DNA of 64,000 nucleotides from an uncultured Planctomycetales bacterium. GTDB lineage: Bacteria; Omnitrophota; Gorgyraeia; Gygaellales; Profunditerraquicolaceae. A model generated the notes under the pieces. That model was not told the origin of the DNA, searched no databases, and saw nothing but the letters and a program-made list of their open reading frames with translations. This document shows positions 2,409 through 35,174 of this stretch, one piece after another. The stretch's first letter is position 1. Every line of letters starts with the position of its first letter. The stretch covers positions 179,513 to 243,512 of the forward strand of contig CAZRVK010000002.1 of NCBI GenBank assembly GCA_964603585.1. The letters are read 5' to 3'. The position numbers were made by a program, and so were the translations under genes.

Positions 2409-4337
2409 TTAATCACAAAAGCAAGGCAAAAGGCAAGGATTACCGCATGCCTTGACCCTTGCCATCGCCTGACGGCTTTCTTTAGAATCGAAGATATTTT
2501 TTAAATAATCCTTACGCACATTCCCATAACTGCCATAACAGGTGGTAACCTCGCCGTTATTTGCAATAAGCATGGTCCTTTCCGCATAAAGGCACCTCAC
2601 ATCCTGTGGGGCTAAATTACCGCGAAAGTATTTTTTGGCTAAAGCAAGATTATTCACCGAATTGCGCAAGAGCGAAACATTTTTATTCTTAAATTCTATC
2701 AGATCATCAATAACCTGGTCCAGGACAGCTAATCTTTCCTTGGGGATCCAATACTTAACCTTGCTCGAGCGCTGTTTCATTATCAGATTGTTAGAAAGTA
2801 ACGGCTGGAATTGTATCGAATTCACATTCAGGGATTTTAAAAACCCGGCCAAAGATAAAAGCTCTTCTAAGTTCTCATTAAGTATTATGGAAATAACGTT
2901 GAAGTTTATCCCCGGGTCGGTTTTCTTAAGATATGCGAGTTTCTTCAGCCCTTTAATAGTCTTTTCAAAACACCCCTTGCCACCTCTTATATCATCATGG
3001 ATCTCCGGCGTTAAAGCGTCCAGGGAGATACTCAAAGATAGCGCACGGGAAGTTAAATAAGGCGATAATCTGCCAATGAATTTGTCATCCAATAATATCC
3101 CGTTTGTTAAAATCCCAGTATGATATTTTTTCTCTTTTACATAATCCAGTATCTCAAATATATCCTCTCGTATAAGCGGTTCACCCCCGGACAAAACAAA
3201 CTCCTTTACCCCCCAGTCATAAGCCTGGGCAATCAGGCTTTTTACCTCGTTTGTGGCAAATTCCTTGATCGGACGGTCGGATCTAATCTCACAGATATTA
3301 CATTTTAGATTACACCTATGGGTTATATCCAAGATAATGAATTCCGGGCGATCATTAAGCGGGACGGTTTCCTTGAAATCCCCGGGTAAATCCGGATCAA
3401 TGAAGTTATGTGTCCTGAAATATTCGGAAACATTCCCTGCCAAGTAGATAATTTTATGCAAAGCTAAATAAGCATAGATCCGGGATCTCTTATAAAGATC
3501 GGCCTGCCCCTGCAAAGAAACCAGGCCATTACCTAAAAGACACGAAAACCGCGGGATCTTTAAAACATTAATTATAGTGGCAAACCAAAAAGAAACCTTG
3601 CCGGTAGAGAGTTCTTTTAACAGAGGGTGATCTTTATGTATCCTTTTAACAAGTAAATTCCCCCGGCCGTAAATGTATGCCTGTTTCATAAAACTCCGCA
3701 TATTTTCATCGCGATAATGTATGACTTTTATCTTTTTATCCCAAATGAACCTGTGCCCCCCCTTAAATAACCGCCAAAAGAATTCCAGGTCTTCTCCTCC
3801 GGGCAAAGGAAATCTTTCATCGAATTTATATTTGTCAAATACCCACCTCTTTAATGAAACATTGCAGGTGGGGAAAAAAATCACCTCTTTATTTCCTTTT
3901 ATGCTGGTTTCTATGCTGAATGTGCTTAAAAACTGGCTGACCATGACCGGGGTTTTCTGATTAGAAGCCAGGGTCAAGCCGCCTACTGCGGCAATATCCG
4001 GATTACTGCGGTGTGTCTCCACCATAGCCCTTACCCAGCCAGGGTGTGCCGTACAATCATCGTCGATAAAACCAACGATTGCACTGCAACTGTTTGTGAC
4101 CCCTAAATTCCTGCCCTTTGCCGGGCCAAATCCGGGTTGAGAAAAATATCTTAAGTTTGGATGCCGGGGCCTAAACCTGTCTATCAAAGACCTGGTCTCA
4201 TCACTGGCGGCATCATCGATTATGATAACCTCAAACGCATCCTGCGGATAATCCTGATGAATAAGGGATTTCAAACATTCCGCAAGTTTATCTTGCCTGT
4301 TATATGTCGGGACGATTATTGAAATATCAGTGGGCAC
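2409..4337 (-). CDS. family-2 glycosyltransferase fused to a radical SAM/SPASM domain
   Basis: N-terminal IIVPTYNRQD...IIIDDAASDE (GT2 fold, DxD). The C-terminal half has ITHRCNLKCNICE (CxxxCxxC), GGEPLIRED and a terminal CGNPCLLPCFCD SPASM-like cluster. Confidence 0.75.
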   Translation of the reverse strand: MPTDISIIVPTYNRQDKLAECLKSLIHQDYPQDAFEVIIIDDAASDETRSLIDRFRPRHPNLRYFSQPGFGPAKGRNLGVTNSCSAIVGFIDDDCTAHPGWVRAMVETHRSNPDIAAVGGLTLASNQKTPVMVSQFLSTFSIETSIKGNKEVIFFPTCNVSLKRWVFDKYKFDERFPLPGGEDLEFFWRLFKGGHRFIWDKKIKVIHYRDENMRSFMKQAYIYGRGNLLVKRIHKDHPLLKELSTGKVSFWFATIINVLKIPRFSCLLGNGLVSLQGQADLYKRSRIYAYLALHKIIYLAGNVSEYFRTHNFIDPDLPGDFKETVPLNDRPEFIILDITHRCNLKCNICEIRSDRPIKEFATNEVKSLIAQAYDWGVKEFVLSGGEPLIREDIFEILDYVKEKKYHTGILTNGILLDDKFIGRLSPYLTSRALSLSISLDALTPEIHDDIRGGKGCFEKTIKGLKKLAYLKKTDPGINFNVISIILNENLEELLSLAGFLKSLNVNSIQFQPLLSNNLIMKQRSSKVKYWIPKERLAVLDQVIDDLIEFKNKNVSLLRNSVNNLALAKKYFRGNLAPQDVRCLYAERTMLIANNGEVTTCYGSYGNVRKDYLKNIFDSKESRQAMARVKACGNPCLLPCFCD

Positions 4338-22847: not shown

Positions 22848-24221
22848 TTAAACACGGGACTCTTGTGCGGACACCGCGGCGATCACCGCAGCGCCTATTC
22901 CGGAACCATCCTTGGTCAAAGCCATTCTTAATTTATTGGATCTGGATCCAAAAATCTCTTTGAGGGCTGCCTTCAAATGCCTGGAAAATCCCGAATGTAA
23001 TTCATATAAACTTCCGTCAACAGCAATGGTATGTTTACAGGCGAGATCGCGGTCAATCCTAAAAATCAGCGCGGACAATACCGCAGCAGCTATACGTGCG
23101 CCTCGAATGGCAACCAGGCGGCAAACCGCCTGAACCGTTTTTCTGTCGATCAAAGAAGAATTCTGTATCCCGATCCTTTTTAAAAACACCTCCACTCCGG
23201 ATAAATCATAAGACAGGTCCGCTTCAACCTGCGACATATATTCCGATTTAAACTCTTTTGGGGACTCAAACATAAAAGCTGTCTGGCCGTTAAAAAGGTT
23301 TGTGTCTTTAATCAATCCCTGCAATACCAGCCTGGCGATCTCCCCCAGATACATCCCAGAAACCATTTTTTCCAGGATCTGCTGTCCTGGATTAAGAGAC
23401 GCCTTATCAAGTATCCGATCATAAGCGGTCATCGGAAGTTTGTCAAAATTACCCCATTCGACATTAATGATCATCTGTCTTGAATTAAACTTACGCCCAG
23501 CCAACTTTCGGATTTTAACAACCTTCTCCTGATAACAAGCATTGGTGCCGGTCCCAAGTATCATCCCGATCGAGCATGATGGGTCACGATAAGCCCGAGT
23601 AACCAAAGTGCCGACAGTATCATTGGCCAAAGCACATATCCTCATGTTCCTAAGCCCCTGCGCCAGAAGAGCAGAATTAAGCAATTTCACCACATCATGA
23701 CCTATTACACCGCTGGCGTTGAAATCTTTAGTCCAATGTAGAAGTTTTCCGCTATCGATCTTGGACTGTTCCACCGGGAAAGAAAAAGTAAAACCGATTT
23801 GCCTGATATCCTGATCAGAAATCCCCTGCTGGAGACAGAAATCCTTGACACACAAAGCAATAAACCCAAAAAGCTCTTTGCCGCTTCCTGCAATGTATTT
23901 TTTATCTAAAACGAATTTCCTTTCTCCGGAAGAACTGATCTGCCCCCGTCCTTTAAGCTGAAGCTCTAATATCCTAAGGTTGGTGCCGCCTAAATCCAAA
24001 GCGATGAATTTCCCTTTTTCTTTGCCTGTAGGCTTATCCGCATAAGAAGGAATCATCTTCAATGAACTGCCTTTGCCCGAAAGGCCGGCTGTCATCTCTA
24101 ACTGGAAATCCCGGCAGATCCGCTTCATCTCTTGTAAAGAAATGGCAAGATCTTCTGCGACCTTCTGTAAATATCTCATTTTAACGGGCATTGCTTGCAC
24201 CTGGGATTGTTCTTTAGGCAA
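22848..24221 (-). CDS. hexokinase-family sugar kinase
   Basis: Hexokinase signatures LDLGGTNLRI, GFTFSFP and ALANDTVGTL. Confidence 0.75.
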   Translation of the reverse strand: MPKEQSQVQAMPVKMRYLQKVAEDLAISLQEMKRICRDFQLEMTAGLSGKGSSLKMIPSYADKPTGKEKGKFIALDLGGTNLRILELQLKGRGQISSSGERKFVLDKKYIAGSGKELFGFIALCVKDFCLQQGISDQDIRQIGFTFSFPVEQSKIDSGKLLHWTKDFNASGVIGHDVVKLLNSALLAQGLRNMRICALANDTVGTLVTRAYRDPSCSIGMILGTGTNACYQEKVVKIRKLAGRKFNSRQMIINVEWGNFDKLPMTAYDRILDKASLNPGQQILEKMVSGMYLGEIARLVLQGLIKDTNLFNGQTAFMFESPKEFKSEYMSQVEADLSYDLSGVEVFLKRIGIQNSSLIDRKTVQAVCRLVAIRGARIAAAVLSALIFRIDRDLACKHTIAVDGSLYELHSGFSRHLKAALKEIFGSRSNKLRMALTKDGSGIGAAVIAAVSAQESRV

Positions 24222-24805: not shown

Positions 24806-26760
24806 TGCTTCAATTCCAAAGGATTGAATTTATAATAAGCAAAAATAGTATATGCTGTTCCGGATACTGAACCAGTGGTCTTGCCTTTAGGAGTCATCCA
24901 GCCATGCCCAGTATCCACAAAATCAAGGGTGGCATAAGGCAGGCAACTCTCACCCTGGCCCGAGGGAGAAGGGCTGGAAATCACCATATTCCCTAAAGAA
25001 GAAAGATACTCATCGGCCTTGCGCTCATAACTGCGCGCCTTGGCAACCATTCCTTTCTGATAACAATAATCTGCCATAATCCTAAAAGATAAAACCATTT
25101 GCGCGGTCCATTCCGAAGAAACTACCCCGCCCCTAGCCACATGGCGAAGAGGCGCAAAATCAAACCCCTTGACTTTGACTACCCTCCCTTCCGGGCGATA
25201 GTAATCGACTTCAACAGAACAGTTATCCTCGGCAAATTCAATGATCCGGTCCGGATTCATACCCAAGGACTCGAGTTTCTCCGGCCCAATCGCCGCAATT
25301 GACCAGGCATAGGTATCGGTAGCGATTGTCGAATCACCTTTACCTCGCATGATCGGGACCTCGCCTTTATCATAAGTATGTGCAACTAACCACTTCAATA
25401 CCTTATCTTCCGCCTGCATATATTTTTCCTTACCGGTAACTTGATAAAGCATTTTAAAAAAAGAATACGCATCCAAATTATGTTCGGTAGCATACCATCC
25501 TACCTGCGGCCCACCGCGAATCCCTCCATCGGAATCTTTCCCTTGGAGATCAATAACAAAATCCGCGATCTCTTCTGCCACACCCAGATATGTTTTATCC
25601 CGGGTCTTCTGGGTATACTGAAGAATGGCGATCCCCAGCCATAAATTAGGCCCGCTATGCACGATAAATTCTGCCGGCTGTCCGTCATTTACATAATAGG
25701 CGTTAAGAAACCCGCCATCGATCCTTTTAGCCTTACGGGCAAAAAAATCCAGGATCTTCTTTGCCCGCGATAAATCAGAGAAATTAGTATATGCCATGAG
25801 CACCAAAGACTGGTCATAAATAAACGCCCAGTTTTCCAAATCCCCATCCCCTTCGAAGCTTAAGACCAGGCCGGTATGCGGATTCTGATGCACTTTAAGC
25901 CACTGGTACATTTTCTCTAAATTCGCCTTTTCTAAAGTAGCTTTTCTTACATCCAGTCGTAGCAATTCCTCCGTTAAAACATTTTCCGTGCTTTGCACGG
26001 AAAGCATTTTATCCTGCAGGGCATTTTTCTCCTGCGTAATCCGCTCGATCAACGCATTAAGCTCCTCTTCACGCTTGGTTATTTTAGTTTCGGTTAATTT
26101 AGCTTTAGCGTTCAATTTAGCTCTTTCTTCGGAGACATTTTCTATCTGCATCTTTAAGGTTTGGATCTTTATCTGTAATTCTTCTTTCTCCTTATATATC
26201 TGCTTTACCTTTTGCTTGGCAATACTGGATTCCTGAACAATACTGACCAGCTGGCTGACCAAAGCCTTATTTCCTTTGATCAAAATAAAATTAAAATAAC
26301 TACCTAAACCCACCCCTAAAGCTAAAAGGATGATCAAAGAGATCGCTGCCGGCTTAAAAGCCTTTTTGACCCGGACATAATGTATCAGGCGGGAATTTTC
26401 CTTACCGGATATCTTACTGTAACTTAAACCTAAAAGATACTTGCCTTGGGATTGGCTTAATTCCTGCACCCAGGATAATCTGGCTTCGGCTTTTACGCTG
26501 TTATCGCTAAAAGGAACTTCTATATCCAGAGAAATCACAGCCTGCTTGCCCTTTACCAGCATGGATAATTCCGCATTTAAATTATTGATTTCCAGGCAAA
26601 TCCCTCCTATCCCGATATTACAGGTAAACCCTTGCAGATTACCAGAAACCGAGCTTAACCCATCAGGGCTTAAAATATGAAAGGCTACCGGCAGGACAGA
26701 ATCGATCCTTAAATACCTCCTGCGCTCATTTGAAGGCAGATCTTTCTTTTTTATCATCAT
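24802..26760 (-). CDS. PilZ-domain membrane protein with coiled-coil and a large C-terminal glycoside-hydrolase-like domain
   Basis: N-terminal RRRYLRID ... CNIGIGGICLE (PilZ RxxxR / (D/N)xSxxG-like, Ser replaced by Gly). One TM helix (AISLIILLALGVGLGSYF), ~110-aa coiled coil, then a ~380-aa Trp/Tyr-rich domain. Confidence 0.45.
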   Translation of the reverse strand: MMIKKKDLPSNERRRYLRIDSVLPVAFHILSPDGLSSVSGNLQGFTCNIGIGGICLEINNLNAELSMLVKGKQAVISLDIEVPFSDNSVKAEARLSWVQELSQSQGKYLLGLSYSKISGKENSRLIHYVRVKKAFKPAAISLIILLALGVGLGSYFNFILIKGNKALVSQLVSIVQESSIAKQKVKQIYKEKEELQIKIQTLKMQIENVSEERAKLNAKAKLTETKITKREEELNALIERITQEKNALQDKMLSVQSTENVLTEELLRLDVRKATLEKANLEKMYQWLKVHQNPHTGLVLSFEGDGDLENWAFIYDQSLVLMAYTNFSDLSRAKKILDFFARKAKRIDGGFLNAYYVNDGQPAEFIVHSGPNLWLGIAILQYTQKTRDKTYLGVAEEIADFVIDLQGKDSDGGIRGGPQVGWYATEHNLDAYSFFKMLYQVTGKEKYMQAEDKVLKWLVAHTYDKGEVPIMRGKGDSTIATDTYAWSIAAIGPEKLESLGMNPDRIIEFAEDNCSVEVDYYRPEGRVVKVKGFDFAPLRHVARGGVVSSEWTAQMVLSFRIMADYCYQKGMVAKARSYERKADEYLSSLGNMVISSPSPSGQGESCLPYATLDFVDTGHGWMTPKGKTTGSVSGTAYTIFAYYKFNPLELKQ

Positions 26761-29177
26761 TTCCCCTCTAAAACTACTCTCTCTTTAATACGTTTTGCCA
26801 GCCCTTCAAAAAAGGCCTTAAAATCCCGATACTCTTCAATCTCAACCACATTCTTTTTTAATTCCACTTTCTGTTTAAAATATATCCGCCCATCACGCAC
26901 GTTGTATTCGGCATTAAAGCGTATCCAGGGGGTATCATGGCTGATCCGTTCAGGCATATATTTTACACCGAAATCCTTTGGGATTGCAACTTCAAAGATT
27001 GTTTCTCTGGCATCCAAAAAATTGAAATTTAACGGATACTTTCTTTTTTGCCTGGCAACCAAAGAGGCGTCGATACTGGTCATCTGTGGCATGATCCGCA
27101 GGCGGCCTGCAGAAATGAAATACTCCTGCCCTTGGAAATCATAATTCAACTGCACCGGTAAATTAAGATCATCGAGATTCCTGATATCATACGTCATCAG
27201 CTGTGACCCAACAGATATATCCTGTATCTTTTCATTTAATGACTCTTTGATCAACTCCGGGGGAGTATACAAAAGCCAATGTCTTTGAGCCTGGTCATAA
27301 ACCCCGGAGGTGGACACATTTTTTCTGGCGGTAATCCCGCCGTTTTGGCTAAGTGCAATATCCAATTTATGTTGAATAAAATTATGCTCTGCGGGATATA
27401 ACGGCGTATTCTGGATCAAATAGGCATCATCTTTACAGATCAAAACGCGCCGCGCCTGATCATCTACCGGCAAATCGCCAAAGGAACAGGTTTCTGCGGT
27501 CGGGTCCATAAAAATCATTTTCTCTCCCAAAGCCACTATGGCGATACAGTGGTTAAAAAGCATGCCCGGGAAATCGTCCCTTAAGTTATAACAATCCCGG
27601 GTAGGGATAAGCACCGGCCAGCTATCGTTGATTGCGGCTTCTCTCAGCATGGTCACCAAAAGTATCGCCTGATCCTTGCAGTCTCCATATTTATTCTTGA
27701 AGATATCAGCGGCAAAATGCGGTTCATACCCTGCCTGCCCATATTCAACCGCGACATAACGGATATCCTTGGCGCAAAAATTATAGATCGCGCGGATCTT
27801 TTCCTCATCACTTTTCTTATCCCGGATCAATTCAGCTACTTTATTCTTTATTGCCGTATCCGCCGTTATCTTATCTTTCGCCAAACCCCACCACCAGGCA
27901 TAAATCTCCTGCCAATTTGCAAATGTCGAGAACAAAAGAGAAGGATTGATCTCTGCATCTGGAGGCATATTAGGTTCCGGGATGATCTGCGGGATATCCC
28001 TGAATTCCCAGGAATAACTGATCTGTGTTGGAGACTCTTGTATTTTGGGATCGGGTTTGGCGGAAAAATCGTTAAATCTTTCATTGATATATTTCAGATG
28101 CAATGGTTTTTTTCTGGGAAGGACCAGCTTAAAATTAGCCGAGATCACCGGGTCATAATTCTGTAGAGGGTAACTAAAAACAAACTCTTTCTTGTTGATC
28201 AGTTCATTGCGAGTGATTTTCAGCTTGTATTCCAAAAATACCCCTTCGCTGATCTCCGGGAAAGAAATTATCCGGACCCTGGCGTTACTATAAAGCGGGA
28301 AATTCAGGTATTTTGAGACATCCCGAATATGCCGGGATCCCACATCCACTACAGTTCCATCTGGTTTGACTGTGCGGGCATACACTATCTCAACTTTTTC
28401 ATAAGTAGAGTCGTACTCGATCCTGCTTTCGGAAAAATTCCCTTTTCCCCGCTCGTTGAGGATCTTTATCAGATAATGCATCGACGAAACCTGCCGGTTA
28501 TCCTCGGTTACCTCGATCTTTTCATCGGCCAAAAGTATCAATGCCCCTGCCTGGGGATAGGCTTCTTCGGATGGGCTGTTCTTGATCAGATCATAAATAT
28601 CCCTGTCTATCTCCTGTATTTTAAGAGGGCTGGCTTGTTTTTCTATTGAATTTATCCTTTCTAATGCCTGGATATTGAATGGTTCGTCTTTGATGGTGCG
28701 GTAAATAGCTAACGCCTGATCAAAAAGATTCAATTTTTCCATAACTAATGATTGATAATAACGCGCCTCGTCATCCTGGGGAGGATTTTTAGAGAATTGC
28801 TCTGCGGCACCAGCAAAGTCGGATAAACGGTAAGAAGCAATCGCCAGGAATTTCTTTGCCTGCGGCAGGCGGGAAGAATCGAATTCCTTGCGCGCCTTAA
28901 TAAATTCTCCGTGATTAAAATACAACATCCCTAATTCAAAATGCGCCCGGTCCAAACCTGATCCCTGCCTGACCAGGGACTGATACTCTTTTTCTGCCTT
29001 ATGATAATACTCCTGCGAAAGCTTTGCTTGGGTTTGTGCCTTTTGTAAATCCGTATTATCCCTGCATCCGGATAAAATCGTACATCCTATCCATAAGAAT
29101 AACGGTAGTACGGACAGGGCATTACCCGAGGATACCCACCATTTATCTCTATGCCTTGTACACATCGCTATAGGCAT
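26757..29177 (-). CDS. TPR + transglutaminase-like (DUF3857/transglutaminase-core) lipoprotein
   Basis: Lipobox ILSGC after a signal peptide and TPR-like helices. Later a YGDCKDQAILLVTMLREAAI Cys-containing transglutaminase-core-like motif. 806 aa. Confidence 0.6.
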   Translation of the reverse strand: MPIAMCTRHRDKWWVSSGNALSVLPLFLWIGCTILSGCRDNTDLQKAQTQAKLSQEYYHKAEKEYQSLVRQGSGLDRAHFELGMLYFNHGEFIKARKEFDSSRLPQAKKFLAIASYRLSDFAGAAEQFSKNPPQDDEARYYQSLVMEKLNLFDQALAIYRTIKDEPFNIQALERINSIEKQASPLKIQEIDRDIYDLIKNSPSEEAYPQAGALILLADEKIEVTEDNRQVSSMHYLIKILNERGKGNFSESRIEYDSTYEKVEIVYARTVKPDGTVVDVGSRHIRDVSKYLNFPLYSNARVRIISFPEISEGVFLEYKLKITRNELINKKEFVFSYPLQNYDPVISANFKLVLPRKKPLHLKYINERFNDFSAKPDPKIQESPTQISYSWEFRDIPQIIPEPNMPPDAEINPSLLFSTFANWQEIYAWWWGLAKDKITADTAIKNKVAELIRDKKSDEEKIRAIYNFCAKDIRYVAVEYGQAGYEPHFAADIFKNKYGDCKDQAILLVTMLREAAINDSWPVLIPTRDCYNLRDDFPGMLFNHCIAIVALGEKMIFMDPTAETCSFGDLPVDDQARRVLICKDDAYLIQNTPLYPAEHNFIQHKLDIALSQNGGITARKNVSTSGVYDQAQRHWLLYTPPELIKESLNEKIQDISVGSQLMTYDIRNLDDLNLPVQLNYDFQGQEYFISAGRLRIMPQMTSIDASLVARQKRKYPLNFNFLDARETIFEVAIPKDFGVKYMPERISHDTPWIRFNAEYNVRDGRIYFKQKVELKKNVVEIEEYRDFKAFFEGLAKRIKERVVLEGK

Positions 29178-29219
29178 GGCATACTCCTTCTACAAAGGCT
29201 TTTACACAACTATAATTCC

Positions 29220-30041
29220 TTATACGATCTCTATTTCTAAAATATTGTCGATACGAAAAGTTCTCTCATCATTCTTCAGGGAACAAAACCCCACTAAATA
29301 ATTGTGCTGATTCTCCCGGCGGATCACTTTTGGTTTTACTTCCCTTAAGGTAACCTCTGCCGTGGATGAAGATAAATACCGGATTTTAAGACCAGCACCC
29401 AGATCAATTGCTTCTTGGATTTGAAACAACTTTTGGGCCAATTCGCCACCTAAAAAATGCTTATTCACGGAAAACAAACTGGCGTAATGTCGGTAATCCA
29501 TAACGCCTTGGGATTTTAATTTATTTTTTAGCTTCTGAAATACCGCAAAGGTGAGCTCCACGTCAGAAAAAGCCCGATGCTCCTGTTTACATTTTATTCC
29601 CAGATGTTCGGCTACAAACCAAAGGGCATACCGATCCAATCCCGGCAACAACCTTCTGGCCATTTTCAGGACATCCAAAACCATTATCGTTTTATCCAGA
29701 TCCTGATTGAGCAGTCTCAATTCATTCTGCAAAAACTCCAGATCAAACCCGGCGTTATACGAACACAAACAGCTGCCTTTAATGAACTCCATAAACTCTG
29801 CAGCCACTTTTCTCATCCCGGGTGCGTTTTTTAGCATTTCCTGGGATATCTGGTTAACCTTAAACGCTCCAGGAGATACCTCTCTGTCCGGATTGACCAA
29901 TGTCTGGAAGGTATTGATCAAAGAAACGCCTTTAAACCGCATCCCGGCGATCTCTACGATCCGGTCTCCGGCTTGCGGTGAAAGCCCGGTGGTTTCGGTA
30001 TCGAAGATCGTCAATTCTATTTCATCGATTTCCTTGTTCAT
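29220..30041 (-). CDS. DnaQ-like DEDDh 3'-5' exonuclease fused to a C-terminal WYL domain
   Basis: Exo I IFDTETTGL, Exo II YNAGFDLEFL, Exo III EHRAFSDVELT. The C-terminal ~100 aa contain YLVGFCSLKNDERTFRIDNI (WYL / R.FR.D(R/N)I signature). Confidence 0.6.
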   Translation of the reverse strand: MNKEIDEIELTIFDTETTGLSPQAGDRIVEIAGMRFKGVSLINTFQTLVNPDREVSPGAFKVNQISQEMLKNAPGMRKVAAEFMEFIKGSCLCSYNAGFDLEFLQNELRLLNQDLDKTIMVLDVLKMARRLLPGLDRYALWFVAEHLGIKCKQEHRAFSDVELTFAVFQKLKNKLKSQGVMDYRHYASLFSVNKHFLGGELAQKLFQIQEAIDLGAGLKIRYLSSSTAEVTLREVKPKVIRRENQHNYLVGFCSLKNDERTFRIDNILEIEIV

Positions 30042-30177
30042 ATCAGCAATGTTTTCCTCTTAATAATGCCATTAAGAGTAATCGTGCCGCCGAAGTGGCA
30101 AGCGGCGACGCAGTCTCAAAAACAAGATTACTCCGCCCTTAGGGGCTCGCAATTACTGTTAAGACGGTCCCGGGAGG

Positions 30178-31068
30178 TTATTTTTTAACGATATACGCCG
30201 GAATCAGTTTTACCGGATGATAAGATAATTTTACCTGCTTTAAATTCTCCAGTCCGGAATCATCCATAACATTTATATATTTATACCCTTTAAGCTCGGA
30301 GCAAAAGGCCTGAAAAATAAACTGCGCCAGCCCTTTAATACTTAAATCGGTAATTTCATAGAGTATGCAGAAAGTATCTGCATTTATAGGGTACCCGAAT
30401 GTAAACCCCTTTATTCGTCCGGACACCTCAACAACCCTGCCGATACAATCCAGTCTTTCATACCGGTCCAGCATAATCCCAAAAGCATTTTGGCTATCAT
30501 CGATCAAGCCTTGATATACCGGATCATCGCTTTTAGGCAAACGCTGCTTTGCCCAGAGGCCAAAAAGGTCCCGGCATGCAGCGTCATCATTTTTTACAAA
30601 AGGCTTGAACTTATATGCATAGTGTTTGCAAAAATAATTACGGCTGGCGCGCTTGGATTTAAAAGCGTTGCCTTTTAGCCGTACCAAATCCGTCCGCAAG
30701 CAAATATAATCCGATGATTTTGGGAATGATTTATATCCTAACCTATGATAAAGATCCAGATCTTTTTTTTCAAGATTCTCGATGCGTGAGACTTCCGGAT
30801 TGGGATTCAAATCATTCATTAATGCAAAAACCTTAACGATTGTTTCTTCTGTTATCCTTACCCCTAAGGGGGGCAGATACAGAAAAATCCCCATTTTATC
30901 CCTAAAGAAAACACAAAGACAGTCCTTGTCTATCGTCCAGTTTACTTCAAATAATCCCTTCCAGATATAAATATTAGCAAAGGCATAAACCGATAACTCG
31001 CGGCATGATATATTCAAGTATCGCTGAAAGATCTTACGGTCAGCAATAGATAGTTTCTTTAGTTTCAT
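30178..31068 (-). CDS. DUF2156-family protein (MprF C-terminal aminoacyl-tRNA-dependent transferase-like domain)
   Basis: 296 aa, soluble. Resembles standalone homologues of the lysyl-phosphatidylglycerol synthase C-domain (GNAT-like tandem fold). Moderate certainty. Confidence 0.45.
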   Translation of the reverse strand: MKLKKLSIADRKIFQRYLNISCRELSVYAFANIYIWKGLFEVNWTIDKDCLCVFFRDKMGIFLYLPPLGVRITEETIVKVFALMNDLNPNPEVSRIENLEKKDLDLYHRLGYKSFPKSSDYICLRTDLVRLKGNAFKSKRASRNYFCKHYAYKFKPFVKNDDAACRDLFGLWAKQRLPKSDDPVYQGLIDDSQNAFGIMLDRYERLDCIGRVVEVSGRIKGFTFGYPINADTFCILYEITDLSIKGLAQFIFQAFCSELKGYKYINVMDDSGLENLKQVKLSYHPVKLIPAYIVKK

Positions 31069-31071
31069 GCA

Positions 31072-31563
31072 TTAAATCTTTAATTCCATGATATCCAGGA
31101 CTTCTTCATATGCCTGAATAATGTGTGGATTGTCTTTTAATATGCTTAACTGTGCCGGTGAATTCAGGCAAGCACTTAAATATTCGACATACTCTTTAAA
31201 CTCTTTATCTTTTATCTTTTTTTGTATATATGGACAGTTTAAGTCTACGGTAAGAATGACCTTCTTATTGCGCATACCGATAAGGAATGGATAAAGCTGG
31301 CATTCAAAGGGGCGCCGGGCATAAATCTTACACTTATTATCCTGTAAACTCAAAAGAGGGCAAAGGAAACCTTCTTGCGAAGGATCTTTGACCAGTCCAA
31401 TCCGTTTGTCTAACGAGATCGTGACTGACGCCAAATCATTATCCAGTAATCCCTGGATCTCCTCATCCAGAAGACAAGGGGACCAGAGGGAATTCTCTTC
31501 TTTAAACCGGCAACATCCCCGGCATTCCAGGCAAACTTCCTGCGGAACAAACTGTTTTATCAT
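31072..31563 (-). CDS. YkgJ-family zinc/iron-chelating (CxxCxxCC) protein
   Basis: N-terminal CLECRGCC motif plus further C..C pairs, as in UPF0153/YkgJ. 163 aa. Confidence 0.65.
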   Translation of the reverse strand: MIKQFVPQEVCLECRGCCRFKEENSLWSPCLLDEEIQGLLDNDLASVTISLDKRIGLVKDPSQEGFLCPLLSLQDNKCKIYARRPFECQLYPFLIGMRNKKVILTVDLNCPYIQKKIKDKEFKEYVEYLSACLNSPAQLSILKDNPHIIQAYEEVLDIMELKI

Positions 31564-31880
31564 TTAACCGTACTTCCTAATTTAATTTGTTTTACTGGGC
31601 TAACTATGGCAAGCCCAGTATCATCAGAAGCCGCCAAAAGCATACCCTGGCTTTCCACTCCTCGCAGCACTGCCGGTTCTAAATTATCCACCACTATTAC
31701 TTGTTTACCGATCAAATCTTCTTTAGAATAAGCGCCTCTTATACCGGCCACGATCTGCTTGATTCTATCACCCAGATCAACCTTAATAACATACAGCCGA
31801 TCTGCATTGGGATGTTCCGTAACTTCTTTTATTTCAGCAACTTTAAGCTCTATTTTCCTAAAATCATCGATGGTAATCAT
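31560..31880 (-). CDS. CsaA/EMAP-like tRNA-binding domain protein
   Basis: FRKIELKVAEI..EHPNADRLYVIKVDLG..QIVAGI...LIGKQVIVVDNLEP..LRGVESQGMLLA matches the OB-fold tRNA-binding domain of CsaA / MetRS C-terminus. Stop overlaps the YkgJ start (ATGA). Confidence 0.8.
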   Translation of the reverse strand: MITIDDFRKIELKVAEIKEVTEHPNADRLYVIKVDLGDRIKQIVAGIRGAYSKEDLIGKQVIVVDNLEPAVLRGVESQGMLLAASDDTGLAIVSPVKQIKLGSTVK

Positions 31881-32211
31881 TACAAATGCCTCCTTTTAAT
31901 ATACGCTAATTTTACCATGCCCCGTCTTAAAAAACAAGGCAAAAAACAGGGAATGGTCTTCCTCCGCCAGAGAATAAATGTGTCACTCCTGCCAATTCCC
32001 ACATTCAAGCCTAAAAAAGAATTTTGTTTTGAAACAACAGAATTCCAGTTTAACAAGCCCTAATCTAAAAACCTTAACGATATATTTGTTCTTTCCCGGA
32101 GTGTTTTTACCGATCATGGCTGTCATTTTCTCCCTCTGGCATAATTGAAAGGCCTTCTGCTTATTAAACGCATAGGCCGGAAAAAAGTTTCATAATTTTA
32201 GCCGGGACAAG

Positions 32212-32245
32212 AAACAAAAAAGCACTCCGTAAAGAGTGCTTTTAA
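32212..32245 (-). terminator. rho-independent terminator downstream of tRNA-Asp
   Basis: Minus-strand GCACUC-UUUACG-GAGUGC hairpin followed by UUUUUUGUUUCUUG. Confidence 0.6.
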
Positions 32246-32263
32246 AATACCGCATAATATAAA

Positions 32264-32339
32264 CGGGGCCGACGAGATTTGAACTCGCGATCTTCGCCGT
32301 GACAGGGCGACGTGTTAAACCAGACTACACTACGACCCC
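32264..32339 (-). tRNA. tRNA-Asp (anticodon GUC)
   Basis: Reverse complement GGGGTCGTAGTGTAGTCTGGTTTAACACGTCGCCCTGTCACGGCGAAGATCGCGAGTTCAAATCTCGTCGGCCCCG folds as a cloverleaf: 7-bp acceptor, anticodon loop CTGTCAC, T-arm GTTCAAATC. Confidence 0.85.
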
Positions 32340-32346
32340 AGGACTA

Positions 32347-32384
32347 CAGATTCAAGATTAAAGGACCAAGACTCAAGAATGAAG
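32347..32384 (+). repeat. heptamer tandem array CAGATT-CAAGATT-AAAG... (left arm of an inverted pair)
   Basis: Plus strand reads CAGATTCAAGATTAAAGGACCAAGACTCAAGAATGAAG. It is the inverted counterpart of the array at 32756-32820 and overlaps the stop of the four-helix-bundle gene. Confidence 0.7.
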
Positions 32385-32735
32385 TGATTTAATTATTGTA
32401 CACAAAATTTTAATAACTTCAATGTTTTCTTTTTCTATTCCGAGCAAATCCGACTTATCAAAACAAATCACTTTTGAATCTTTTAATATCTGCAACCAAT
32501 TGTCAAACTCATAACTTGAGTTTAACGCGATCTGAAAATATGTTTCTTTTTGTTTCGCGTTATGAGAATCGTTACCTTCTGCGACATTGGCCCCTACCGA
32601 AGTAGCTGCGCCGAAACATTGATCAATAATTCTCGAATATTTTGGATTGCTTTTATCCAGTAAATTTATGATTAAAAGCGCATTTTTATGTGCCTTTTGC
32701 CAAACGATAAGTCTTCTATAACTCGGCTCACCCAT
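32373..32735 (-). CDS. four-helix-bundle protein ('23S rRNA intervening-sequence protein' family)
   Basis: LIVWQKAHKNALLIINLL ... QCFGAATSVGANVAEGNDSHNAKQKETYFQIALNSSYEFDNWLQILKD matches the TIGR02436/PF05635 pattern (VWQ..., NIAEG). Confidence 0.8.
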   Translation of the reverse strand: MGEPSYRRLIVWQKAHKNALLIINLLDKSNPKYSRIIDQCFGAATSVGANVAEGNDSHNAKQKETYFQIALNSSYEFDNWLQILKDSKVICFDKSDLLGIEKENIEVIKILCTIIKSLHS

Positions 32736-32755
32736 ACCGCCTAAAATCGCAGGTC

Positions 32756-32820
32756 TTGCCCTCTGAATCTTGGATCTTTGATCTCGAATCTTGAATCTTT
32801 AATCTTGAATCTTGAATCTG
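32756..32820 (-). repeat. heptamer tandem array (CAAGATT)n, ~8 units, immediately 3' of tRNA-Val
   Basis: Minus strand reads CAGATT CAAGATT CAAGATT AAAGATT CAAGATT CGAGATC AAAGATC CAAGATT CAGAGG, starting 6 nt after the tRNA-Val discriminator. Confidence 0.8.
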
Positions 32821-32826
32821 CATTTA

Positions 32827-32900
32827 TGGGCGGTAGAGGACTCGGACCCCTGACCTTCTCTGTGTAAGAGAGACGTTCTAACCAGCTGAACTAACCGCCC
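32827..32900 (-). tRNA. tRNA-Val (anticodon UAC)
   Basis: Reverse complement GGGCGGTTAGTTCAGCTGGTTAGAACGTCTCTCTTACACAGAGAAGGTCAGGGGTCCGAGTCCTCTACCGCCCA. Perfect 7-bp acceptor, anticodon loop CTTACAC. Confidence 0.85.
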
Positions 32901-32932
32901 TGCGATCTAACTTCCGGATTCAAAAGATAAAT

Positions 32933-33382
32933 TTACAGTTTGCCTAAGGTGCCTAAGGTAAAAGCCATGACAAATAAAGCTACGGTTTCGATAACACCCA
33001 AAACAACGATATAACTACCAAATCCCTTTCCGGTCTCTCCCATCGCATCACAAGCACTTGCCGCGGCCTTACCCTGCCAATAAGCAGAAAGCCCGATAGC
33101 CAATCCGGCAAACAGGCCGATACTCCACAAATATATACCTTTATTTACCATTTCGAGGATTTTATTCATTACGATCATCCCATACACTGTTTGAGTAAGC
33201 GGAGCGCCAACAAATGCGACCAGCATAAACGATGCCGGCTTGTTTTGAGAAAGATTCTTTTTCCAGGCGCCAATCGCGCTCATTCCGGCAATACCTGATC
33301 CTAAAGCCGAACCACACGCCGAAAGGGCTAAAGCCATAATTGCCCCTAAATCCTTAAATTGCCCCATTAACCCGTTATCCAT
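32933..33382 (-). CDS. atpK: V-type ATPase subunit K (proteolipid c-ring subunit)
   Basis: 149 aa, four hydrophobic helices, Gly/Ala-rich. Last gene of the V-ATPase operon. Confidence 0.75.
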   Translation of the reverse strand: MDNGLMGQFKDLGAIMALALSACGSALGSGIAGMSAIGAWKKNLSQNKPASFMLVAFVGAPLTQTVYGMIVMNKILEMVNKGIYLWSIGLFAGLAIGLSAYWQGKAAASACDAMGETGKGFGSYIVVLGVIETVALFVMAFTLGTLGKL

Positions 33383-33404
33383 AAAACCCCTCCCTTATAA
33401 TGCC

Positions 33405-35174
33405 CTAATCTTCTTTAAACGGTTTATATTCTAAGCCGCTCCAAGTCACATTAGCATGCCCGGAAAACTCCAGCACATTGAGCCTGACCCCATGCACTAA
33501 AACCGACATCGGACCAAGAACAATATTTAAAGCATGCCCGGCTAAAAGAATTACTGCGCTCAATAAAAGCGCAATAAAATTAGCCTGTCCGACAGATCCC
33601 GCCATCGCATTAAATGTGTCTGCGATAGCAACCCCGGCCAAACCCACAGCAAAAAGGCGGACATAAGAAACCACGTCGGTGAAATTATTCATCAGGTTTA
33701 AAAGCAACGTCCCTATCCCTGCGCCAACCGCCTTAAACAGATTCCTTTGGGGGTTAGTAAAAAATACCACTAAGATAACTCCGAGAATTATCAAATAATT
33801 GCCAAAACTCGGGAAATTATCACCTAAGATCAAGGTTTTAGCCAATAAAAATGCTGTCCAGAGAACACAAACCCAACCTAAATCCGCTAATGCAGATAAA
33901 GATGGGATTTTTAAAACCGCTCTCCAGGCATGTGCAATAGTAAGATGTATCGCCCCCAACGAAAAGCAAAAAGCTTGCAAAGCCTTACTATCGCTTAAAG
34001 CCGGAAGCAAAGGCTTATAAATCCCGGCTAACCATGCCTGGCCAAAAAATGTCCCGGTCAAAAGCCCCCATATAATAGCGCAAAAACTTAATATGTAAAA
34101 GAGAAAAAATGGTGATTTATCCGCTGCTCTTTTCCCAGACTTAATATATGCCCAAAAGGTCAGCAATAAATAAATCAGGCCATACCCGGCGTCTCCAATA
34201 AGCATACCGAAGAAAATACTGAAAAAGAAAAGAAATGGTAAGCTGATATCCAATTCGTGATAGCCCGGGATAATCTCTAATAATTTAAAAACCGGCTTGA
34301 TCAAAGAAACCCACCCGGGATTACGGATTAAAGTAGGAACGTTATCATCTTGCCGGGGATCATTGACCATTAACCCCCATTTTCTTTCTTTTGCCCAGAG
34401 AATTAACCTATCCAAGGCATCAACCGGGATAAATCCAGACAAGTAAGAGATCTTTTCGCTTTTACCCAGTCCATTCAAAACCCCGAGGAATTCTATTTCT
34501 TTCTCCAAATGCCGTTTTTTTTCCACAAAGTCATCGGCGTAACGAGTGGATCTGATGATTTCCTGTTTGATTGACTCCATTGTCTTCTGGTCCTCCAGGA
34601 GTTTGCTGTGCATCTGGCTTAATCCCTGTTTAGGGGGAATAATCTCTTTTAAATTACATTCGAATTCGCCCTGAAAGAAAACCGTGCAAAAAACTGTATT
34701 GCCTTGTGCAAAAATCTCTTTTACGACCGCACCGGAAGGGAAATTCTTTAATTCTTTCCGAGGCACCTGAAAAAATCTTACAGAAATACCTTTTTGCTTT
34801 AAATGGCGGATCTCTGCCGGATCAAAATCCCCCCAAGGGCACCAAACGCTGATTTGATAGCGCATATTGTTAGAATATACATCCAATTGATCATAACGTT
34901 TCCAAAGGTCGTTTATATGCCGGGCGCAAAACATCCAATCTCCGGGAACCTTAGCCGCAGGGATATTTAGTTCTGTCAATCCCTTAGCCCAGTTGAGGAT
35001 CCCTAGGACTGTATTTACTGCAGATAGCTCTTCTTGCAGGACAGCGGTTTCTTTGCCATGCGGGGATAAGTCACGTTGGATATGCATAACCCCCAATTTA
35101 GCCAAATCCCTGACAGCCGTAGAGGCATCTTTATCCTGAATAATGATTGTGGCTTTTTTCATCTGCACAATCAT
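33405..35174 (-). CDS. atpI: V-type ATPase subunit I (a-subunit)
   Basis: 589 aa, hydrophilic N-terminal half plus polytopic C-terminal half. Placed between D and K. Confidence 0.75.
   Translation of the reverse strand: MIVQMKKATIIIQDKDASTAVRDLAKLGVMHIQRDLSPHGKETAVLQEELSAVNTVLGILNWAKGLTELNIPAAKVPGDWMFCARHINDLWKRYDQLDVYSNNMRYQISVWCPWGDFDPAEIRHLKQKGISVRFFQVPRKELKNFPSGAVVKEIFAQGNTVFCTVFFQGEFECNLKEIIPPKQGLSQMHSKLLEDQKTMESIKQEIIRSTRYADDFVEKKRHLEKEIEFLGVLNGLGKSEKISYLSGFIPVDALDRLILWAKERKWGLMVNDPRQDDNVPTLIRNPGWVSLIKPVFKLLEIIPGYHELDISLPFLFFFSIFFGMLIGDAGYGLIYLLLTFWAYIKSGKRAADKSPFFLFYILSFCAIIWGLLTGTFFGQAWLAGIYKPLLPALSDSKALQAFCFSLGAIHLTIAHAWRAVLKIPSLSALADLGWVCVLWTAFLLAKTLILGDNFPSFGNYLIILGVILVVFFTNPQRNLFKAVGAGIGTLLLNLMNNFTDVVSYVRLFAVGLAGVAIADTFNAMAGSVGQANFIALLLSAVILLAGHALNIVLGPMSVLVHGVRLNVLEFSGHANVTWSGLEYKPFKED

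Follow-up and report, generated by a model that had tools for sequence, protein, structure and literature searches.

A putative CxxCxxCC-DUF2156 enzyme encoded beside a Trbp111-type tRNA-binding protein in Omnitrophota

Few enzymes divert charged tRNA from the ribosome, and each of them is biologically important: MprF, the Fem enzymes, the L/F- and R-transferases, ErdS and ErgS, and the transferases of antibiotic pathways. The DUF2156 family, its chemistry and its free-standing forms are already known. Large free-standing DUF2156 clades, including that of the 2006 structure 2HQY, are still without an assigned function. Here, we analysed a stretch of 64,000 nucleotides (nt) from an Omnitrophota genome (contig CAZRVK010000002.1 of the assembly GCA_964603585.1, labelled as an uncultured Planctomycetales bacterium), the whole of which we call the window. 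It provides a testable case: an operon encoding a tRNA-binding OB-fold protein (tRNA_bind), a protein of the CxxCxxCC (YkgJ) family, and a free-standing DUF2156 protein of 296 amino acids (aa).

The hallmarks of aminoacyl-tRNA transferases are a catalytic lysine and a helix of positive charge on which the tRNA's acceptor stem docks (PMC6103681, PMC9351520). The conserved lysine (Lys813 in L-PGS, Lys840 in A-PGS, Lys305 in FemX, and Lys304 in Ate1) and the basic helix are common to these enzymes (PMC9351520). The isolated synthase domain of MprF makes no aminoacyl-phosphatidylglycerol in vivo without its membrane part (PMC8131360). Of two fungal sterol aminoacylases, ErdS, a fusion of aspartyl-tRNA synthetase (AspRS) and DUF2156, is fully active only together with its AspRS part, which points to channelling, and ErgS is a DUF2156 protein that stands alone (PMC7334510, PMC8913301). 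Ate1 carries an N-terminal Cys4 site (CxxC...CC) that binds Zn or an oxygen-sensitive regulatory iron-sulphur (Fe-S) cluster near the active site of a GNAT-fold transferase (PMC9351520, PMC9884297). A cysteine motif related to CxxCxxCC binds a catalytically essential [4Fe-4S] cluster in FliB (PMC8598068). Among tRNA-binding OB folds, the old "tRNA elbow" model has been overturned: what Trbp111 and Arc1p recognise is the single-stranded 3'-terminal C75-A76 alone, adducts on the terminal ribose being tolerated, and the synthetase-fused domains of this type raise the local tRNA concentration and lower the Km (PMC11286949). The OB folds of MCP1 and Arc1p hydrolyse Ala-tRNA by means of K326, R331 and S335 (K269, R274 and S278 in Arc1p), and MCP2, with a Glu at the position of the Lys, is inactive (PMC12021450).

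We tentatively read the operon as encoding a soluble aminoacyl-tRNA-dependent transferase with a metal domain, aided by a subunit that would bind the CCA end of tRNA, and with a non-lipid molecule as the candidate acceptor. The arrangement of the three genes is far beyond chance: the same order was found in 160 independently retrieved loci, at protein identities of 28-59%. The DUF2156 clade was matched in at least 251 species-level genomes, and its named relatives, split or fused, are all Omnitrophota or records mislabelled "uncultured Planctomycetales". The system has so far been found only in this phylum. In the literature that we searched, nothing linked DUF2156 or tRNA with CxxCxxCC/YkgJ, or DUF2156 with Omnitrophota. 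The CxxCxxCC-DUF2156 enzyme, its phylum-wide spread, and its operon with a Trbp-type CCA binder appear to be undescribed there.

The CxxCxxCC domain and DUF2156

We collected 170 loci: 80 came from GTDB species representatives, 80 from metagenome contigs and 10 from look-ups. The CxxCxxCC and DUF2156 genes were adjacent or fused in 169 of them, and the lone exception is truncated. To count the fusions, we took the 150 best representatives of 50%-identity clusters for the DUF2156 protein. Fifty-eight of these have a length of 400 aa or more, with a maximum of 545 aa, and carry DUF2156 at their C-terminal end. Pfam placed PF03692 at the N-terminus of eight of the ten long representatives tested, and a profile of the Omnitrophota CxxCxxCC orthologues found the domain in 61 of the 150 (E-values from 1e-14 to 1e-51, one partial case excepted). 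The fusions are called as single genes by the source databases and are named Omnitrophota proteins by NCBI. This classic fusion-based link indicates that CxxCxxCC and DUF2156 belong to a single enzyme. By the same evidence, it is the CxxCxxCC domain, joined to DUF2156 in one chain in about 40% of the related clusters, and not the tRNA-binding protein, that is its obligate partner.

The CxxCxxCC protein is above the cutoff of PF03692 (YkgJ/COG0727-type; 2.7e-8, 34.8 bits for a cutoff of 23), and eight cysteines (C11, C14, C17, C18, C68, C78, C88, and C110) are invariant among 34 sequences. Its AlphaFold2 (AF2) model has a pLDDT of 90.5, and we found no solved relatives, either by sequence or by fold. 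The family as a whole is without a solved structure. By analogy with FliB, the sole source of biochemistry close to the family, and from the description of the family, the module would bind Zn or Fe-S. The candidate homology with the N-terminal domain of Ate1 was dropped: neither ATE_N nor ATE_C was matched at E ≤ 10 by the split proteins or by two fused proteins, and the parallel stays an architectural analogy.

The DUF2156 protein matches PF09924 (LPG_synthase_C) over positions 9-297 of the 298 of the model (3.9e-30, 105.4 bits for a cutoff of 27.5), and its AF2 model is a tandem GNAT (pLDDT 89, pTM 0.84). An earlier note on this DNA, made from the letters alone, had already described the three genes with their positions, ATGA overlap and 3-nt gap, had placed tRNAs nearby, and had recognised a YkgJ-family metal-binding protein; ORFs (open reading frames), sequence, ARAGORN, Rfam and Pfam agree with it. 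It had put up the assignment of the 296-aa protein to DUF2156 as a test of its reading, and profile search, AF2 and Foldseek all returned a full-length DUF2156 with a dupli-GNAT fold. The recurrence of the three genes elsewhere, which it had also proposed, was confirmed both for the pair described above and for the tRNA_bind gene (see below).

Among the 50 fold matches listed by Foldseek, the closest is 2HQY (TM 0.85, 27% identity). The best folds after it are all aminoacyl-tRNA transferases: 5VRV, 4V36, 6LV0, 7DUW, 9J8Q, 4V34/35, Sba18/Sbb17, and FemX. The probability given by Foldseek is 1.0 for 2HQY, 5VRV, 4V36, 6LV0 and 7DUW. The MprF synthase domains, Sba18/Sbb17 (streptothricin-type peptide synthases) and FemX have TM values of 0.55-0.65 at identities of 10-16%, and the acyl-CoA tandem GNATs rank lower. 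At the level of sequence, 2HQY was the sole match of phmmer among solved structures at E ≤ 1 (2.8e-28). The DUF2156 profile matched 2HQY at 2.9e-90 and 4V36 at an E-value of 0.0073, in one segment only. We found no NCBIfam model specific to the CxxCxxCC-DUF2156 enzyme.

The features expected of an aminoacyl-tRNA transferase, a basic helix between the two GNAT domains and an invariant lysine, appear to be conserved. The region L131-H150 (LKGNAFKSKRASRNYFCKH) aligns with the basic helix region of L-PGS (4V36) and has a mean net charge of +4.8 over 38 sequences; the whole protein is basic (net +13). P67, G133, R140, W172, G225, E238, G246 and K280 are invariant in the alignment, N144 is nearly so, and the invariance of R140 and K280 extends from Omnitrophota through the Bacteroides clade of 2HQY. 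K280 lies in a conserved motif, G-L-x-x-L-K-x-x-K-x-S-Y-x-P. It is invariant in 38 split-form Omnitrophota and Bacteroides sequences, and 28 fused sequences have an invariant Lys in the matching motif, by our own mapping of the correspondence.

Several points weigh against this assignment of the donor. Aminoacyl-tRNA is suggested by family membership, neither this clade nor that of 2HQY has a characterised member, and the clade is not closely related to the proven MprF synthase domains (10-16% identity, TM of about 0.6). K280 aligns with the K of "SFKEKYKPVW" in 4V36 in a stretch of about 0 bits that is not significant alone, and its tentative equation with Lys813 of L-PGS assumes the numbering of the crystallised 4V36 construct. 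Moreover, K280 is inside the only low-confidence loop of the AF2 model (residues 271-281), which would fit an active-site loop ordered by its substrate. The non-ribosomal aminoacyl transfer proposed in the earlier note is supported in part, by the conserved basic helix, Lys280 and 3'-CA pocket of the tRNA-binding protein; the donor itself is assigned through the family, at the low identity to MprF just given.

The tandem-GNAT fold is also common to acyl-CoA-dependent enzymes. The protein could be one of these, an N- or O-acyltransferase for which a tRNA-binding neighbour would be irrelevant. 2WPW, 5KF1/5KGA, 3N7Z and 2HV2 are among the fold matches, and an ordinary GNAT acetyltransferase comes after the Bacteroides homologue, with which it is sometimes fused. 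By inspection of the sequence, the stretch G246-x-A248, which follows strand beta-4 in the second GNAT, bears a loose resemblance to the loop that binds the pyrophosphate of CoA. Yet, the canonical Q/R-x-x-G-x-G/A motif is not conserved at its first residue, none of the Pfam acetyltransferase families scored at E ≤ 10, the better-scoring folds after 2HQY are all aminoacyl-tRNA transferases, and the basic helix, the invariant Lys and the strong positive charge are kept. We regard an acyl-CoA-dependent enzyme as improbable.

The name given by NCBI, [quoted passage not shown], implies instead an ordinary lipid aminoacylase, i.e., an aminoacyl-phosphatidylglycerol or aminoacyl-diacylglycerol synthase working at the membrane surface without a flippase. 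The protein does belong to PF09924, and all DUF2156 enzymes characterised so far modify lipids (PMC7334510, PMC8913301, PMC6103681, PMC10580965), including the fungal ErgS, which is free-standing and yet acts on ergosterol (PMC8913301). However, the protein has no membrane segment (maximal 19-residue Kyte-Doolittle hydropathy of 1.18) and the neighbouring operon products are likewise soluble by hydropathy. The lack of membrane segments in the operon makes a non-lipid, non-membrane acceptor plausible, and, together with the inactivity of the isolated MprF domain in vivo (PMC8131360), it makes a lipid acceptor less likely. The clade is nearest to 2HQY, not to the synthase domains, and its obligate partner is a soluble Cys-rich metal domain that is found in no known lipid aminoacylase. 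We consider a lipid aminoacylase quite improbable, and the database name probably over-predicts a lipid function.

The tRNA-binding protein and the conserved neighbours

The 106-aa OB protein matches PF01588 (tRNA_bind) with 102.9 bits (1e-29; cutoff 27). The earlier note had taken it for a CsaA-type protein. This was ruled out, since it misses the cutoffs of the NCBIfam CsaA models (TIGR02222, 55.2 for 119.65; NF007496, 39.2 for 171) and matches the CsaA structures at only about 1e-8. It passes the cutoff of metG_C_term (TIGR00399, 122.7 bits for 116.65). Its best solved relatives are the C-terminal domain of the methionyl-tRNA synthetase (MetRS) of Pyrococcus abyssi (1MKH, 3.7e-33) and the Trbp111 of Aquifex (1PYB, 1e-21), and it aligns without gaps to both.

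We examined the conservation of the binding pocket over 74 Omnitrophota orthologues. Arginine 73, serine 77 and methionine 80 are invariant; they correspond respectively to F78, S82 and M85 of Trbp111 and to R274, S278 and M281 of Arc1p. Position 28 is K or R (K33 in Trbp111, S227 in Arc1p) and position 70 is A or V (R75 in Trbp111, V271 in Arc1p). The pocket is thus intact, in the configuration of Arc1p, and the protein is a predicted binder of the 3'-terminal CA of tRNA. Position 68, which residue spacing matches to the site of the deacylase Lys, is Glu or Asp in 73 of the 74 sequences. Because of this acidic residue, the protein is predicted to lack Ala-tRNA deacylation. The most economical reading is that of a non-deacylating CCA-end binder, which would suit a neighbour that consumes aminoacyl-tRNA.

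The tRNA_bind gene is directly upstream of the CxxCxxCC gene in 63 of 69 species representatives (91%) and in 41 of 58 metagenome loci (71%), the latter retrieved with a fused profile that excludes the OB domain. It is retained in most loci where the synteny with tRNA-Asp is lost (23/27 species representatives, 18/30 metagenome loci). Of 122 loci, 83 keep the 4-nt overlap between its stop and the start of the CxxCxxCC gene. Fused forms at about 36-44% identity likewise have the tRNA_bind gene in front of them.

These associations may nevertheless be inherited synteny. The OB protein would then be a general Trbp111-like tRNA chaperone, or an appendage acting in trans for MetRS or the phenylalanyl-tRNA synthetase (PheRS), and the enzyme would work without it and might or might not use aminoacyl-tRNA; this would not conflict with its being an aminoacyl-tRNA transferase all the same. 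We judge this alternative possible, if rather unlikely. By the NCBI cutoff the OB protein would be named the beta subunit of MetRS, with a housekeeping role, and among solved structures a MetRS C-domain is its nearest relative. A 677-aa PheT of Omnitrophota (locus L087, 529-2562) has the B3_4, B5, tRNA_synthFbeta and FDX-ACB domains and lacks the N-terminal PF01588 domain, so that a trans-acting tRNA_bind copy could be needed. The region sits in a wide synteny block that also holds unrelated genes: V-ATPase genes, a porin, tRNAs (tRNA-Asp within 3 kb upstream in 23 of 51 species-representative loci) and a transglutaminase-like gene (no more than 6 kb downstream, in 39 of 64 species representatives). 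Gene overlaps are frequent in this compact genome, as seen in the window. Finally, the most divergent forms, which are mostly fused, lack both tRNA_bind and the downstream exonuclease gene, so this is no obligatory partner.

The adjacency of tRNA_bind is however clearly above that of the other syntenic neighbours (23-61%), it outlasts upstream rearrangement, its overlap is kept in most loci, and it extends to the divergent fused forms mentioned above. We keep the OB protein as the candidate subunit of the transferase. The earlier note had called it a dedicated partner, which is overstated: the two are frequently and tightly joined, but the gene is absent from the most divergent forms, lies in a broadly syntenic block, and would be named a MetRS beta-like housekeeping factor by the NCBI rule.

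Other observations concern synthetases and the neighbours of the fused forms. Locus L087 encodes a fused CxxCxxCC-DUF2156 gene without an adjacent tRNA_bind, with PheS/PheT about 2.4 kb upstream. An approximate E. coli MetG probe detected no MetRS gene, either in the window or among 171 loci. A 734-aa "fusion" in locus L150 proved to be a stop-to-stop read-through from a PGI gene. Clustering of the flanking ORFs revealed no recurrent replacement neighbours of the divergent fused forms, with only sporadic sensor kinase and GGDEF genes.

The operon of three genes described in the earlier note was confirmed, but a conserved downstream gene had been missed. It encodes a 273-aa protein with a DEDDh exonuclease domain (PF00929, 1e-34) and a WYL domain (PF13280, 9.8e-12). 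The protein scores 119 bits for a cutoff of 71.5 with TIGR00573, resembles by NCBIfam the DnaQ/PolC proofreading domains rather than RNase T, and a 273-aa member of its 90%-identity cluster is named Pol III epsilon by JGI. The gene is downstream of DUF2156 in 70 of 77 species-representative and 40 of 62 metagenome loci, and overlaps the DUF2156 stop in 73 of 125 loci. The gene of this DnaQ-family 3'-5' exonuclease, which comes directly after DUF2156 in most relatives, is the fourth of the conserved unit, kept about as often as tRNA_bind, and is possibly part of the operon. The WYL-bearing form is found in the window and in many relatives, and a WYL-less form of 206 aa occurs beside some fused enzymes (L088, 6399-7019; L090, 6513-7133).

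With this fourth gene, tRNA could be the substrate rather than the donor: a CCA binder, a metal/GNAT enzyme and a DEDDh exonuclease might modify, repair or survey the 3' ends of tRNA, or of other RNA or DNA. Elp3, with its Fe-S plus GNAT logic, is a loose analogy. The three activities can meet at a nucleic-acid 3' end: the terminal CA is where OB folds of the Trbp type bind (PMC11286949), and 3' ends are what DEDDh enzymes digest. A PF03692-like motif holds the catalytic [4Fe-4S] in FliB (PMC8598068). Furthermore, tRNA_bind and the exonuclease are gained or lost together: among 50 metagenome loci with both flanks, 31 have both, 13 neither, and six only one. This co-loss may equally reflect one ancestral rearrangement. 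The likeness to a proofreader, the 136 nt that separate the exonuclease gene from DUF2156 in the window, and the fact that no known DUF2156 enzyme acylates RNA all speak against this alternative, which we hold to be very improbable.

The locus and its surroundings

The features of the locus, and other genes of the window mentioned below, are given in Table 1.

Table 1. Features of the locus and other genes of the window (positions in the window)
Feature	Position	Strand	Size	Evidence
tRNA_bind OB-fold gene	31560-31880	-	106 aa	ORF list, Pfam PF01588
CxxCxxCC gene	31072-31563	-	163 aa	ORF list, Pfam PF03692
Free-standing DUF2156 gene	30178-31068	-	296 aa	ORF list, Pfam PF09924
DEDDh exonuclease-WYL gene	29220-30041	-	273 aa	PF00929 and PF13280
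ATGA stop/start overlap (tRNA_bind TGA, CxxCxxCC ATG)	31560-31563	-		Sequence
Gap between CxxCxxCC TAA and DUF2156	31069-31071	-	3 nt	Sequence
tRNA-Asp(GTC), syntenic upstream neighbour	32263-32340	-		ARAGORN; Rfam, 65.6 bits
tRNA-Val(TAC), syntenic upstream neighbour	32827-32900	-		ARAGORN; Rfam
Terminator-like hairpin and T-run after tRNA-Asp	32218-32243	-		Consensus scan only
"23S rRNA intervening-sequence protein", four-helix bundle	32373-32735	-	120 aa	PF05635, 1.6e-18; TIGR02436
V-type ATPase c/K and I-like subunits	32933-35174 and beyond	-	149 aa and 589 aa	Below Pfam cutoff (I-like)
TPR, DUF3857, transglutaminase-core and DUF3858 protein	26757-29177	-	806 aa	
Eukaryote-type hexokinase	22848-24221	-	457 aa	Hexokinase_1, 2.4e-63; Hexokinase_2, 3.7e-75
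Family-2 glycosyltransferase fused to a radical SAM domain	2409-4337	-	642 aa	1.8e-30 (glycosyltransferase); 6.1e-24 (radical SAM)

The hairpin after tRNA-Asp has an 11-pair stem followed by TTGTTTCTTG (consensus scan only), which suggests that the operon is transcribed separately from the tRNAs. Searching Rfam in E-value mode over 29000-33500, we found the two tRNAs only, and no T-box or other regulatory leader RNA. The reading of the locus as a defence system was dropped: PADLOC gave no defence-model match for the tRNA_bind, CxxCxxCC and DUF2156 proteins, and only generic DEDDh and WYL domain matches for the exonuclease.

Chance proximity of the tRNA genes was rejected. A tRNA-Val(TAC)/tRNA-Asp(GTC) pair is found upstream, on the same strand, in around half of the related loci (L011, L013, L019-L021, L025, L027, L030, L032, L038, and others), even at the fused-form locus L088 (36% identity). 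A subset of other loci has a tRNA-Leu(GAG) directly upstream (L003, L017, L034, L061). We found no reason to read a donor specificity from the upstream tRNA pair. The gene for the intervening-sequence protein lies between tRNA-Val and tRNA-Asp, and a homologous ORF is at the same position in L081 (1495-1887). Upstream of the tRNAs are the V-type ATPase genes, and such K/I genes recur upstream in 16-22 related loci (e.g., L011, 1124-3581), which indicates that the synteny block is large. A gene of about 509 aa lies between tRNA-Asp and tRNA_bind in 25 loci (L020, 3649-5175, and 24 others) and is absent from the window. It was suspected to encode a synthetase and was identified as an Alginate_exp-like outer-membrane beta-barrel porin. 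On the other side, some genomes insert pabB/pabC-like or hypF/C/D genes before the transglutaminase-like gene.

Over the window (1-64000), nearly all ORFs of at least 150 aa are on the minus strand and the GC skew is negative in each 2-kb bin, consistent with a single replichore and a strong gene-strand bias. The GC content falls to 35% in the last 2 kb. The hexokinase is of a type unusual in a bacterium.

Proposed mechanism and comparison with known systems

The aminoacyl-tRNA-dependent transferase that we tentatively favour would have as its core a two-part enzyme, made of the eight-cysteine CxxCxxCC module and the soluble tandem-GNAT module of DUF2156. It would pass the aminoacyl group from aminoacyl-tRNA to an acceptor other than bulk membrane lipid; small molecules, glycan precursors and the amino groups of proteins are candidates. 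The basic helix of DUF2156 would dock the tRNA's acceptor stem, and Lys280 would stabilise the tetrahedral intermediate, as in FemX, the aminoacyl-phosphatidylglycerol synthases and Ate1. The OB protein, as a dimer, would capture the 3'-CCA end and act in trans as the synthetase-fused domains do, by raising the local tRNA concentration, lowering the Km, and passing the tRNA to or from the catalytic site. The metal module, with Zn or Fe-S, may mould the acceptor site, control access to it, or act as a redox sensor, in analogy with the Cys4 site of Ate1. Observed here are the gene order, the domains, the fusion, the conservation of genes and residues, and the lack of membrane segments; what we infer is the donor, how the tRNA is handed over, what the metal does and which kind of acceptor is used.

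A bolder version of this proposal seems to us possible, if rather unlikely. CxxCxxCC-DUF2156 may represent a new class of bacterial aminoacyl-tRNA transferases, a prokaryotic functional counterpart of Ate1 in which a redox- or metal-sensing Cys8 module would gate the transfer to a non-lipid acceptor (the N-terminus or a side chain of a protein, an envelope precursor, or a metabolite). A deacylase-dead Trbp-type subunit would act in trans to bring in or take away the tRNA 3' end, and the DEDDh exonuclease would possibly process the released tRNA end.

The fusion ties DUF2156 to the CxxCxxCC fold, and the operon ties it to a binder of tRNA 3' ends. The locus bears on the role of free-standing DUF2156 proteins, on the purpose of the CxxCxxCC/YkgJ fold, and on whether stand-alone Trbp-type proteins deliver tRNA to enzymes other than synthetases.

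The closest relative of known structure, 2HQY, is a free-standing DUF2156 protein from Bacteroides thetaiotaomicron solved by structural genomics. It has the same size, is soluble, and shares G133, R140, W172, G225, E238, and K280. It is uncharacterised and thus gives no functional transfer. The locus of its orthologue (L171) has the order LrgA-LrgB-DUF2156-Acetyltransf_9, with neither CxxCxxCC nor a tRNA_bind neighbour, which counts against our reading of the operon. Given this different context, we dropped the extension of the operon context beyond the phylum. In some database entries (proteins P0467 and P0381), DUF2156 is fused to the downstream GNAT (478 aa) or to the upstream LrgB (508 aa), fusions that may be real or artefacts of gene calling.

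The synthase domain of MprF (4V36, 4V34/35, 5VRV, 7DUW, 9J8Q) shares PF09924, the tandem GNAT, the aligned basic helix, and, tentatively, the Lys of a K-x-x-Y-x-P motif near the C-terminus. The protein of the window differs in having no flippase, transmembrane domain or anchor, and in being paired with a soluble, Cys-rich metal domain; there is no indication of a lipid acceptor. Like ErdS and ErgS, it is a DUF2156 outside the MprF architecture. The tRNA-handling module of ErdS boosts activity, and the free-standing ErgS is active. Here, a separate CCA-binding OB protein takes the place of a synthetase, there is an additional metal domain, and the enzyme is bacterial, so that sterol acceptors are not expected.

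Ate1 is eukaryotic, has four conserved cysteines where the present module has eight, shows no sequence homology at E ≤ 10, and is absent among the 50 fold matches listed. In Ate1, nevertheless, a cysteine site precedes a GNAT aminoacyl-tRNA transferase with a basic helix and a catalytic Lys, which is the same architectural logic as in CxxCxxCC-DUF2156. The metal module itself compares with FliB and YkgJ: it belongs to PF03692 with eight conserved cysteines, and the related motif of FliB binds a [4Fe-4S] cluster. Finally, the OB protein differs from Trbp111, the C-terminal domain of MetRS, and the Arc1p-EMAPII OB fold in its genetic context: its gene shares an operon with that of a DUF2156 enzyme, and it is not part of a synthetase.

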